From: Octopus vulgaris
Taxonomy: Eukaryota
Assembly (NCBI GenBank): GCA_951406725.2
Contig: OX597830.1
Span: forward strand, 47,678,001 to 47,742,000
Reading direction: 5' to 3'
Length of the DNA: 64,000 nt
Part shown: in pieces, positions 5,923 through 21,212 of the stretch
How positions within the stretch are numbered: position 1 is the stretch's first letter
How the letters are laid out: every line of letters begins with the position of its first letter
Translations under genes and position numbers: made by a program
Notes under the pieces: model-generated
What the model was told of the DNA's origin: nothing
The model's input: the letters and a program-made list of their open reading frames with translations, nothing else
Databases searched by the model: none

Positions 5923-6122
5923 TCAATAATTGAATGTGTAGAGATCACAAAGCTTTTGAGAGTTATTTGAGTAGGCAAAAGCAACACATATCTGCTCGCG
6001 CTGACAAATTGAGGCACACCTCATTCTTGATGGACTTGTGGTTTCACGAAGTGGCTTCAGCGGGATATAAGGGTTGAAACCAAATACAAAGTAAGCACTA
6101 AAAGCCGAACCCTTAAATGTTC
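5923..6122 (-). CDS. PAN protein paralog A, terminal coding exon 5 (PAN/Apple domain 2)
   Basis: Strong acceptor (polyT-ctgtctttcgcag), phase 1. Encodes ...SRMRCASICQREQICVAFAYSNNSQKLCDLYTFNY*, with TGA at 5925-5923. Confidence 0.85.
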
Positions 6123-6819
6123 CTGCGAAAGACAGAAAAAAAAAATAAGGTTACATATAAAATTTTAATTATTTGAATTATTTGGAGTGTATATATATAT
6201 ATATATATATATATATATATATATATATATATATATATATAGAGAGAGAGAGAGAGAGAGAGAGAGAACAAATAGTGAGGGATTATCAATTCGGGCCAAA
6301 TACTTCGTAAGCTTTCTGTTGGTACACCAGACTAACACTATTTCTTAGATTAGTGAAGAACTCCAGGTAATCTTTTTTGGTAGGGTCCCAAGTTGTAGTT
6401 CATCACAGTTCTATATTGTAAATCTGGATGGGGTCCAGACAAATTGGTCTTTACGCAGTGTGATATATATAAGAAACAAGTTTTAAATAATGGTTATTAC
6501 TTATTTTTCCTTCACTGCTGGAGTAAATTTAGCTTACAGCTGTTTCCAGTAAGCATTAGAAGTACGTTGCCGATATGTTTACTCAAATGGTCTGTTCAAT
6601 TTACCTCAATTGGAAATTGGTGTAAGCCAAAATTGCGCTAATAAAGGAATTATACACACACACGCACACACACACACACACACACATTTAAAGTAAAGAG
6701 AAAATGGAGAAACATTGATCAACAAGAATTGACTTAGAACGAGAGGAAGACGAACGCCTTTCATCTTTCCCTCGAGGCTCTTCTTCTTTGCTTTTCTTTT
6801 CTTTTCTTTTATATATGTA

Positions 6820-7332
6820 CTAGCAGTATCGCCCGGCGTTGCTCGGGTTTGTAAGGGAAATAACTATATAAGCATTTTTAGAGAGTTACTTCCCTTATAG
6901 ATGCCAATTCGGGGTTTCTTAGCCATTTCTGTTTTGGTGTCTTCAAGCCATGAAGTCGTTGTTCTAAAAGAACGCTGGTCTCCTTGACAACGCTTTACGA
7001 CGTTGATTTCCTTACACTCCCTTCCCCACAGCTTCACGAGGGAGGAAAGAAGGGGGAGAAGCAAACAGGTGCAGGTGTGACCATGGGTGCCAACTCCGCC
7101 GCCATCGACACACGAAAAATTATGCATTAAAATGGAATAAAAAATGATGTTAAATTATTTTTAAAATCGTAGACTCATCGTAGACGCGCGCTAATTCTCA
7201 GACGGGCTCGATATGAATCACGACTATAAGATAGCCGAATTTGGTTAAACTGCACCGCAAAATGTGGGAGTAGTTAGGAATCTAAATCGAAGGGGACAGA
7301 CACTCACACAACTACAGTTTTATATATATAGA
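6820..7332 (-). mobile_element. Non-autonomous Helitron (copy A only)
   Basis: Minus strand starts A|TCTATATATATAAAAC and ends with a GC hairpin (CCCGAGCAACGCCGGG) then CTAG|T: canonical TC...CTAG termini at an AT target. Confidence 0.75.
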
Positions 7333-9722
7333 TTTTTCTTCACTCTGATGAAGATCCATGTTCCAGATCGGATGTATCACCAAATATGATGAATATTATT
7401 TTCAGAATTTTCAATGGCAATGCAATATAACATTGGAAGCAGAAACAGGTGTCAGATAGGATGCAGACTATTGGTATTGACTTAAAAAATAATAATTGAT
7501 GTAATTCAATTGTTGTTGATTAATATTTTCTCCATTCTGTTTTCTTTAAATTCGATTCCTGATAAACTCAAGTTTATCTTTGTCATTACCTGTAACCTAT
7601 GACCGTAATATGCTTGCATATCTATGTCCAGGGTTAACATAGGTCATTATACCGGTAGTATAACAGATATTTTGTATCCCTTAGACGGTTATTCTAACCT
7701 CTAAATCTACTAACCTTTATGTATGTATGTATGTATGTATGTATGTATGTATGTATGTATGTATGTATGTATGTATGTATGTATGTATGCATGCATGCAT
7801 GTATGTATTTATGTATGTATAGATATATATATATATATATATATGTATGGATATGGATATATATATATATATATATGGATATGGATATATATATATATAT
7901 ATATATATATATATATACATGTGTGTGTGTGTGTGTGTGTGTGTGTGTGTGTGTGTGTGTGTGTGTGTGTGTGTGTGTGTGTGTGTATGTATGTATATTA
8001 AACAGTAGTGAGATAAGAGATAAATTATTTATTGCAGGAAGCCTTAAAAAGTTAATTATGTGGCGCGAAGCAAGCATGTGTATGATTATTATAATTTTAA
8101 TTTTTCTAGCAAGCATGGGAGACAAATCTAGCCATTTTTCAGACCTATTCTGACTTTATTAGCAAAACATAGCCCTCACCATGTTTCCCAAAGTAGGGAT
8201 AAAAGAATCGCTAGGTAAATGTATAAGATTGCTGAAAGGTTGACGCAGGAAAAAATGAAAATATTTAGAGACACCATCCGCATAAAAAAAGCAATGTTTA
8301 ATTAAGTTAATATTAACATATTTACTGTATGGACCATTAATTAAATATAGATAACTATAGTGGATCTTTTCTTTCTTCCCTTCTCTTTCTGTTTTTAATT
8401 TTGCAACAATTTCATCAAAACCTTGTTAGTAAGAATAAACATCTAATTCCTAACGGAAAATAAGCCAACAGCAACTCAAAGATAAGATGGAATTAACTAC
8501 CATGTTTTCTTAAGCTTTTCTTTTTAAAGTTGTAGTATCGAAAAATCAATTTACATTTTCTTTCCGTTATTGATTAACCGCAGGTAAGCCCAGCTCGTTC
8601 AGATCTCTGATCAAAGGCATTCCAGATGTGACTATCCTGTTCCATTTTGTTTTTGTTTTCTTGTGTTACATTATAGGATGCGTTCTCTTTTTCAAATGGC
8701 AATCTATAATCTAAGGATAATTTGGTTCTTATTTTTAGCAAAAAAATCTACCGTATAGTGACTCCATCGTTTATATTACATGACTGGTGTTTATTTTATC
8801 GATTTAAGATAAATAAATGATAAATTGGCACATTTTTTCTTCTTCACTCTCCTTCTAAAATGGCCGCCTCATAATTCACATTTTTCCTTCTCACAATCTG
8901 TTTATGATGGTAACTTTGCCTTTGGTATATTTTCTTCTTTCTCTCAATGCTTGTCTCATACTTTACATGATTTCCTCATTATCTTTCTACCATATCTTCT
9001 CCATACTTTATTTCCGTTTTTTTTTGTTTCATTTTTCAACTTATAAATTTTTTAATAGCATTTTTTTATGTCTCAGTTCAAAACATTTCATTCAATTTGT
9101 CGCTGTTGTTGCTTAAATGATTCTTTGTGGTGACAAGATTAGAAAATGTGGACAAGTTGCAAGTTCCAATTTCGTAAATGGTATTAAAGTTGTTAATACG
9201 TTTTCGAGATAGGAAACTGGAAGATTACGATATTCATAGTTTACTTTGGCCGTCCTTTCGAACGCTTCAATGATTTCTCGTGAGCACGCCAACCATCACG
9301 GTTCCTCGTGCAAGTTCGTCAACATTTACCATTCCACTTTCCCGAAGCAAGTTGTCCACATAATTTTATTTTTGTTTTTGCCGAACCGCAGAGCTGTGAG
9401 AACGTAAACACACCAGCATCGGTTTTCATGCGGTTTTCAAGCGGTTACCACGCGCATACACGCACGCACGCGCGCACACACACACACACACACACACACA
9501 CACACACACACACACACACACACACACAAGATAATCTTCTTTCAGTTTCCGTTACCCAATCACAAAGCTTTAATCGGTCCAAGGCTACAGAAGAAAACAT
9601 TTGCCTAAGGTATCACGTAGTAGGACTGAAACCGGAACCATGTGGTCGGGAAACAATCATCTTAACACACAGCCATTGTTTTCTTACATAGGTTGAGTAA
9701 TTATCAAATGACTAGTATTATA

Positions 9723-19425: not shown

Positions 19426-19799
19426 GCACACACACACACACACACACACACACACACACACACACACACACACACACACACACACACAATATATATATGT
19501 ATATATATATATATATATATATATATATATATATATATATATAGAACGTTGGAATGAGTGCTCAATCCCGCATTGGGGGACAAATAATTTCTTTATTTGT
19601 GAATGAAGAAAGGGAGGAGGTAGAAAATGAATATTTTTATTCCACCAATTGACATCCATAGGATAAAGGCTGCGAAACGATCGTCGTTATGATATGGATG
19701 TCAATTGGTGAAGTAAATATCTTCATCTTATACCTCCACTCCTTTTTCAGGTATGTATACACCCACCCCATATATATAAAACTTAGATACGTTTCGACT

Positions 19800-20420
19800 A
19801 GAGATTGGTCCAGGCCGTGTCTAACTTAATAACACCACCTAATAGGCTTTTCTAAATCCTTTTAAAGTCAAGTTTTGTGTTATCATGGTCCATTCAAGTA
19901 GTGAGTTCTTGTTGAGTGAGTTGTATACAGGTATGGGTGGCTTATCTGGAATTCCTTGAAGAAATTTGTCCAGATCCGTTTAAAGTCGATGGGATCCTTT
20001 TCCTCTTTGATCAGTTTTGGGACAATGTTAAACACGGCAGGGCCTGTTGAGGAAAAGAAATTTTGCTGCAGTCTATTTATGTGTTGTGATCCTTAATTGG
20101 GCAGGGGACGTATGGCCCGTGGTCCCAGCCTTGGATGAATTTTGAAGCTAATGTTCAGGTCGTTTTGGCAACGCTGGCAGTATATTCTCCACACCGTACA
20201 AATGATGTACCGCTCGCGGCGGCACTGGAGAGACTAGAGTTTCAAGGCTTTGAGGCGGTTCCAGTAATCGAGATCAATCATGCCCTTAATTCGTTTATTG
20301 AATGCCCTCTGGGGTGATTCAACTTTTGAGATGTTTTGCTTTGTATGGGGAGACCACAGGGGGCAGCAGTATTTGAGGTGTGGCCGTACAATGGAAAAGT
20401 GGAATGATGACACCTTGTTC
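19800..20420 (-). mobile_element. 5'-truncated LINE (CR1/L2-group) RT C-terminal fragment, with stops
   Basis: IVRPHLKYCCPLWSPHTKQNISKVESPQRAF...YWNRLKALKL*SLQCRRERY. Confidence 0.8.
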
Positions 20421-21175
20421 TCTATATACAGAGAGAGAGAGAGAGAGAGAGAGAGAGAGAGAGAGAGAGAGAGTGAGTGAGAGAGAGATCGCATATATAT
20501 ATATATATATATATATATATATATATATATATATATATATATATATTGGGAGAGTTTACGAAAAAAAACAAAAGACGTATCAGTATAACGCTCAGCAATA
20601 GAAAAAGTCTTTTACATTTCGAGTCTACGCTCTTCTACAGAAAGGGACACAGAAAAAAAAACAAGAAGAGAAACATATATATATATATATATATATATAT
20701 ATATATATATATATATATATATATATATATATATGTATATATATATATATATATATATATATATATATATATATATATATATATATATATATATATATAT
20801 ATATATATACATTTAAATGTAAGCAGTGTATATTTATCTGTGTGTGTGTGTGTGTGTTAGCTGTTCATGAAGACTATCTGATAGAATATGAATGCTGTAT
20901 TATTCATGTAAGATGCATCGCAGAATATTCCAACTTATTTTCACGTCATGTTAATCTGATCCTCACCTTTTAAGTATGAAACATTTATATAAAGCCAACT
21001 ATCACACGGTATGCTTGCCTCGTAATTACGCTTGTAATCTTTTATATTTAAAATTTTATCCTTTTTACAAAATCATATTATATGCAACGCATTGAAAACA
21101 AAACGAAAATCATTGAATTTAACTTCACAGAGAAAGGGAAATGTCTGAAGAGAGATATAAGTATATTTAGCTTAC

Positions 21176-21212
21176 CAAAAATGGTTGACAACTTATGCAA
21201 AAGTTTGGACAT
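21176..21212 (-). CDS. Secreted two-PAN/Apple-domain protein, paralog A, coding exon 1 (signal peptide)
   Basis: ATG at 21212 gives MSKLLHKLSTIF, then a phase-1 GTAAG donor. An upstream acceptor (ttcctgtcag at 21268) implies a 5'UTR exon further right. Confidence 0.75.

Follow-up and report, generated by a model that had tools for sequence, protein, structure and literature searches.

A spliced PAN-only gene of Octopus vulgaris and the clustered octopod family to which it belongs

A stretch of 64,000 nucleotides from Octopus vulgaris (contig OX597830.1, positions 47,678,001 to 47,742,000; hereafter the window, in whose numbering coordinates are given unless a contig is named) contains short minus-strand reading frames scattered over 15 kb of repeats, which raises the question of whether they make up a gene and what its product might do. 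A preliminary description, made from the sequence alone, had joined them into a hidden gene for a stand-alone, lectin- or adhesin-like secreted protein with two PAN modules. Our analysis established that this gene, here called copy A, is a real, spliced octopus gene with five minus-strand exons and a product of 205 residues, and that it is an offshoot, with two domains, of an octopod family of which at least 25 three-PAN genes lie on the same contig; a second copy, B, lies in tandem with it. The analysis shows the exon structure, the intact frames of both copies, the PAN fold, the family membership and the faster change of exons than of introns. We consider it probable, though well short of certain, that the product is a secreted, non-catalytic PAN protein with a binding surface on which diversifying selection acts, the surfaces of microbes or parasites being its most likely targets.

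The exons of copy A are as follows.

21176..21212, minus strand: exon 1 (coding part), with the start codon and the first half of the likely signal peptide
17761..17793, minus strand: exon 2, with the second half of the likely signal peptide; the three-PAN paralogues have the same two-exon split
15361..15615, minus strand: exon 3, PAN domain 1 with its four core Cys and Cys33, supported by Pfam, fold and contigs
11269..11361, minus strand: exon 4, the aromatic-rich linker with the single conserved Cys127, its join to exon 3 supported by a contig
5923..6122, minus strand: exon 5 (coding part), a shortened four-Cys PAN domain 2 and the stop codon

With these exact ends, the five exons join in frame and give the same 205-residue sequence as the preliminary description, and all four introns are GT-AG and of phase 1, as had also been stated there. 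The protein has ten Cys, at positions 33, 59, 63, 69, 81, 127, 175, 179, 185 and 198, and AATAAA motifs stand downstream of exon 5 at 5875 and 5562. Because the orthologous O. sinensis protein (LOC118766703, XP_036366244.1) is of equal length, colinear with the copy A protein and identical to it at 192 of 205 residues, the gene model is not a product of chance. The start codon of copy A matches the start of O. sinensis protein P0001, and the longer N-terminus of the O. bimaculoides orthologue LOC106879890 reads out of frame in the window, which favours the start codon chosen before. That orthologue is 72% identical over exons 1-3 (model X2) and shares exons 1-4 (model X1) or 1-3 (model X2), with ends that differ from those of copy A. 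Since the orthologues are annotated in two Octopus species, if only as ‘uncharacterized’ or ‘Apple domain-containing’, and the gene belongs to a large family, it is neither wholly hidden, as the preliminary description had it, nor isolated. Protein searches returned neither of the two proteins of the window itself; within the window, neither a motif scan nor tblastn found a further PAN exon, and Rfam gave no matches in positions 1-34000.

Sequence contigs provided evidence of splicing. The runs compared come from related animals and are taken as RNA by guess, since none of the 24 runs is on record as RNA. Exon 3 is covered by contigs from all four runs compared, and in three of them a contig departs from the genomic sequence at the exon-3 donor. 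In run X1, a contig of 839 nucleotides spans 15361-15609, and its loose end agrees with the first bases of exon 4 at 29 of the 30 letters shown; this contig joins exon 3 to exon 4 and is thus spliced. For the other three joins the evidence is the splice signals together with homologous models. Within intron 3, a short repeat at 15236-15292 is matched by many deep contigs of all four runs and is likely a common transcribed repeat.

The assignment to the PAN/apple group was examined by profile and by structure. The Pfam family PAN_1 (PF00024) matched P0001 in two stretches with 35.8 bits (E 7e-9), the cut-off being 21.4 bits; exon 5 alone scored 24.0 bits, above this cut-off, and exon 3 alone 19.9 bits (E 6e-4), just below it. 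The PAN/apple domain is defined, in a passage of PMC9249922, by a core of four Cys with four to six in all, and this four-Cys core is present twice in the copy A protein, at 59/63/69/81 and at 175/179/185/198. AlphaFold2, run for the O. sinensis protein from an alignment of 15 rows, gave two folded regions with a predicted local distance difference test (pLDDT) score of about 70-88; single-sequence structure prediction gave a pLDDT of 39.9, and a single-sequence search of the PDB returned no match at E up to 1. Domain 1 aligned with the PAN domains of plasminogen (4a5t; Z 11.6, root-mean-square deviation (rmsd) 2.4, 76 residues aligned) and HGF (Z 11.3, rmsd 2.1, 75 aligned), and the 16 structural chains with Z of at least 8 to this domain are PAN-type folds. 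Foldseek placed the two-apple lectin SML-2 at the top, with E 3.5e-5 over both domains, and the best structural matches were all PAN/apple proteins (Sarcocystis SML-2, factor XI/prekallikrein, plasminogen and HGF); the ESM Atlas yielded generic PAN clusters only. The Pfam, structure prediction and Foldseek checks proposed beforehand therefore came out in favour of PAN, with PAN_1 above its cut-off and PAN/apple folds as best matches. For domain 2, the profile match covers positions 18-54 of 76, the protein ends 7 residues past the last Cys, and a helix and strands are modelled at pLDDT 70-80 within the full-length model; the domain seems to lack the final PAN strand. The fold is confirmed clearly for domain 1 and partly for domain 2, so that the two modules proposed are both there, but the second is shortened and matched in fold only in part. 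In agreement with the expected absence of a catalytic domain, Pfam gave only PAN families, and a stop codon follows domain 2 in copy A, copy B and O. sinensis.

Domain 1, as predicted, is folded up to about residue 108; Cys127 follows some 20 residues later, where pLDDT is below 50. Cys33 is invariant in all 15 aligned rows, and the linker Cys is present in 12 of 14 linker loci of the family, the other two being unmatched by the search pattern. Because both Cys are conserved and neither has another partner, a bond between Cys33 and Cys127, about 20 residues away from where the C1-C6 bond of apple domains usually lies, is plausible from the sequence, and the six-Cys apple domain described earlier stays putative. 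Cys127 as the first Cys of domain 2 was also considered and set aside; no intact family member was seen with a sixth Cys there. Residues 109-160 are rich in aromatic residues (17/52 versus 14/129, p 0.0009), in line with the Tyr/Phe-rich linker described earlier. The further claim that the linker is among the most variable parts holds only between copies A and B, with a non-synonymous proportion of 0.094 in the linker, 0.041 in PAN1 and 0.086 in PAN2 (none significant alone); it fails against O. sinensis, from which copy A differs at 8 of 84 residues in domain 1, 3 of 31 in exon 4 and 0 of 40 in domain 2, and against the three-PAN paralogues, in which the linker exon is the most conserved part. 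At the N-terminus there is one hydrophobic peak (1.9) and a helix predicted by AlphaFold2 at residues 3-19, no second hydrophobic segment was found (the best later 19-residue hydropathy is 0.79), and the protein carries four N-glycosylation sequons. The product is thus likely secreted via a signal peptide, without a membrane anchor, as had been proposed.

Relatives of copy A indicate where the gene belongs. Protein searches reached Argonauta GAB1605676.1 and 13 Octopus proteins, most of them with an extra N-terminal PAN domain. Three-PAN octopod proteins (such as O. sinensis LOC118766713, O. bimaculoides LOC106868906 and Argonauta GAB1605676.1) have the same phase-1 exons as copy A, the same two-exon signal peptide, a Cys-Pro start of the middle domain, a one-Cys linker exon (96 nucleotides, the counterpart of exon 4) and a shortened last PAN; unlike copy A, they have an extra N-terminal PAN exon, and their identity to its protein is only 18-28%. 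Exon layout and cysteine pattern are thus common to copy A and the three-PAN genes. A search of the animal's own genome with a three-PAN query gave 114 matches, including 25 first-domain exons at 54-83% identity, all on the contig of copy A (C17).

C17, 47.94-48.42 Mb: 14 first-domain exons, about 210 kb from the copy A gene
C17, 44.8 Mb: 4 first-domain exons
C17, 57.0-57.2 Mb: 6 first-domain exons
C17, 68.7 Mb: 1 first-domain exon
C17, 26.5-26.7 Mb: a more distant PAN group

A tree of 42 domains places domain 1 of copy A, on a long branch, among domains of the middle type (100/100). The likely origin of the two-domain form is a member of the three-domain family that lost its first PAN exon, which is of phase 1; no remnant of that exon was found in the window.

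The nearest cluster (C17:47937813-48423665) holds about 14 three-PAN genes, which lie on either strand and in some cases have their last exon duplicated; four first-domain and two linker loci in it were unmatched by the search patterns and may be broken or divergent. Further PAN exon groups lie at C17:26456290-26700000 and 45985700-46000149, and in the first of these a gene at 26.69 Mb has three PANs arranged as in a distant branch of the family. On another contig, the 1.7 Mb of C10:23274823-24983152 contain 116 of the 150 scored Pfam PAN_1 matches, all 116 on the plus strand and without stops; nine that were sampled form two types, grouping with the first and middle domains of the family, and the region may be a single giant gene of PAN repeats or a large array of genes. 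The octopod PAN family looks under-annotated.

Sequence variation within the 14-gene cluster is concentrated in one domain. The middle PAN has a mean identity of 0.58 (14 of 14 loci), compared with 0.89 for the first PAN (10 of 14 matched the pattern), 0.93 for the linker (12 of 14) and 0.87 for the last PAN (14 of 14); the middle PAN is hypervariable, and the other parts are 87-93% identical. A site test on the middle PAN favoured model M2a over M1a, with omega 4.4 on 25% of sites (likelihood-ratio statistic 37.8, p 6e-9), and neither the linker nor the last PAN gave an M2a/M1a signal of omega above 1 in the cluster. These tests were made with our own implementation, in which branch lengths are only rescaled, and their p-values are optimistic.

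Copy A is itself one of a tandem pair.

38514..49303, minus strand: copy B, with exons 49267-49303, 45889-45921, 43493-43747, 40225-40317 and 38514-38719
1149..32965, no strand: first unit of a head-to-tail tandem duplication of about 32 kb
32965..64000, no strand: second unit, running on to 65862 in window numbering

Copy B has an intact frame of 207 residues and is identical to A at 181 of 205 residues. After masking of repeats and gap edges, the coding exons of A and B differ at 30 of 597 positions (5.0%), compared with 16 of 1715 (0.9%) in the 250-nucleotide flanks and 212 of 15684 (about 1.3%) in all non-exon DNA, an exon excess with p about 1e-8; two non-exon windows reach counts of differences as high. 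The coding changes comprise 29 non-synonymous and 5 synonymous ones, and the seven differences listed for exon 3 in the contigs of related animals are all non-synonymous. All ten Cys and both frames are kept in A and B while surface positions change. The two units also differ in layout: a 488-nucleotide part of intron 4 is inverted between the copies (6190-6676 in A, 38827-39309 in B), intron 4 is longer in A (5.1 kb) than in B (1.5 kb), and a 7 kb AAT array at 52301-59254 in the second unit has about 0.9 kb at the matching place in the first. An ATAC array of 2.4 kb lies at 29862-32233, and degenerate stretches at 9754-10460 and 32900-32965, the second at the end of the duplicated unit, read like what we take to be Tc1/mariner transposase motifs.

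We favour recognition because the protein has no enzyme domain, has a likely signal peptide and belongs to a family with a variable domain between constant ones. According to a passage of PMC9249922, PAN domains mediate binding between proteins or between protein and carbohydrate, and a passage of PMC3532174 proposes a galactose/N-acetylgalactosamine role for the oomycete protein CBEL. In the proposed mechanism, residues 1-24 would be cleaved as a signal peptide, four core disulfides would form, and a Cys33-Cys127 bond would probably hold the aromatic linker against domain 1. Variable binding may fall to domain 1 together with the linker, and the shortened domain 2 may provide a second binding site or a scaffold that changes less. 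The protein would bind glycans or surface proteins of other cells, and selection would keep altering the surface with which it binds. Its ligand would be a surface molecule that is foreign or evolves fast; microbial or parasite glycans, encountered at a body surface or in the secretion of a gland, are the most likely candidates.

A number of observations weigh against this reading, or against parts of it. The join of exons 3 and 4 is the only one seen in sequence reads, and the O. bimaculoides models stop without domain 2, one of them also without exon 4. Hydropathy was the sole criterion for the signal peptide, the linker (109-158) is modelled at pLDDT below 50, and the predicted template modelling score is 0.45. 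With respect to selection, the site test was made on paralogues rather than on the copy A gene, the first PAN domain also tests positive (M1a/M2a, p 3e-4), and gene conversion, left out of the model, inflates such tests. Between A and B, the ratio of non-synonymous to synonymous change (dN/dS) is about 1.8, not significantly above 1 (p 0.15), and synonymous sites, too, differ at a higher rate than introns (p 0.01-0.05), so that gene conversion of introns may explain part of the exon-intron contrast. Finally, the 42-domain tree leaves the order of gain or loss unsettled.

Other explanations of the rapid change have to be considered. Mollusc gamete proteins show fast non-synonymous change, and a small secreted binding protein with such change between close species and copies might serve in reproductive recognition or as a coat protein (spermatophore, sperm surface, oviducal gland or egg coat), with sexual selection driving its diversification; we hold this to be unlikely, though the likeliest of the alternatives, and at least 25 intact-looking variants in one genome suit many targets better than one partner. 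A somewhat smaller chance is given to a component of the posterior salivary gland that binds prey proteins or matrix, like leech LAPP and saratin. Exons outpace introns in venom gene families, and both leech proteins are among the fold matches (LAPP with Z 8.6, rmsd 3.5 and 79 residues aligned; saratin with Z 5.9), but they match no better than other PAN folds, at 11-14% identity, and no paper linking octopus to PAN or apple domains was found in the literature searched.

Two further explanations would make the divergence itself less telling. Copies A and B might be two haplotypes of one gene that the assembly has set in tandem, the gene being real but single; their non-coding divergence of about 1.3% is within the size of heterozygosity, and only one O. 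sinensis model was found. This appears improbable, since the junction at 32965 is head-to-tail, gap-free, exact and novel, with 1-2 nucleotides of microhomology, and the exon excess would in any case persist, as balanced alleles. Least probable, in our judgement, is a structural or matrix-organising protein of skin, sucker cuticle or beak, whose divergence would reflect relaxed constraint together with gene conversion of introns. The aromatic-rich linker, the raised synonymous divergence of the exons and the non-significant A-B dN/dS fit such a protein, whereas omega above 1 in the homologous domain of the paralogues, and the retention of the ten Cys and both frames while surface positions change, do not.

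Compared with known systems, the copy A product resembles by fold the PAN/apple-only binding proteins SML-2 (Sarcocystis muris) and MIC4 (Toxoplasma gondii). A galactose-bound structure exists for SML-2, and its likeness to copy A consists of the fold and a weak profile similarity (E 0.002); identity to these proteins is 13-16%, and the domain arrangement differs (rmsd 12 over both domains). The PAN domains of plasminogen and HGF and the apple domains of factor XI and prekallikrein are the best single-domain fold matches (Z 10.2-11.6), but copy A has neither the kringle nor the serine-protease domains of these families, Pfam showing PAN only, and its putative sixth Cys is displaced by about 20 residues. 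Leech LAPP and saratin are, as the copy A product probably is, small secreted PAN-only animal proteins, but with a single domain. Among the papers covered by our literature search, in which a control phrase was found in 38 papers, none was found on the orthologue LOC identifiers or on octopus with a PAN or apple domain; none was found for ‘apple domain-containing’ with mollusc, the listings of broader searches held nothing relevant, and neither term is present in the main texts of PMC9068888, PMC9635652 and PMC4199593. The fold and PAN-only secreted proteins are already known, and the orthologues have RefSeq entries that name no function; in the literature searched we found neither the clustered octopod family nor its variable middle domain nor the two-domain derivative.

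Taken alone, the copy A protein is an ordinary, likely secreted PAN-only protein, and the news is the family around it, with its clustered octopod expansion, its layout of variable and constant domains and its signs of diversifying selection. Tentatively, and with less confidence than we place in the binding function of the protein itself, octopods may hold an undescribed repertoire of secreted recognition proteins, made up of dozens of clustered PAN-only genes with a hypervariable middle domain between constant ones, of which the copy A gene would be a trimmed, two-domain derivative diverging after recent duplication. Snails and bivalves have expanded recognition families, and such a repertoire, if real, would be their counterpart in a group whose non-self recognition is poorly known. 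If microbes or parasites are what these proteins recognise, the family would open a concrete way into octopus immunity; if they recognise gametes or prey, it would bear on speciation or venom.

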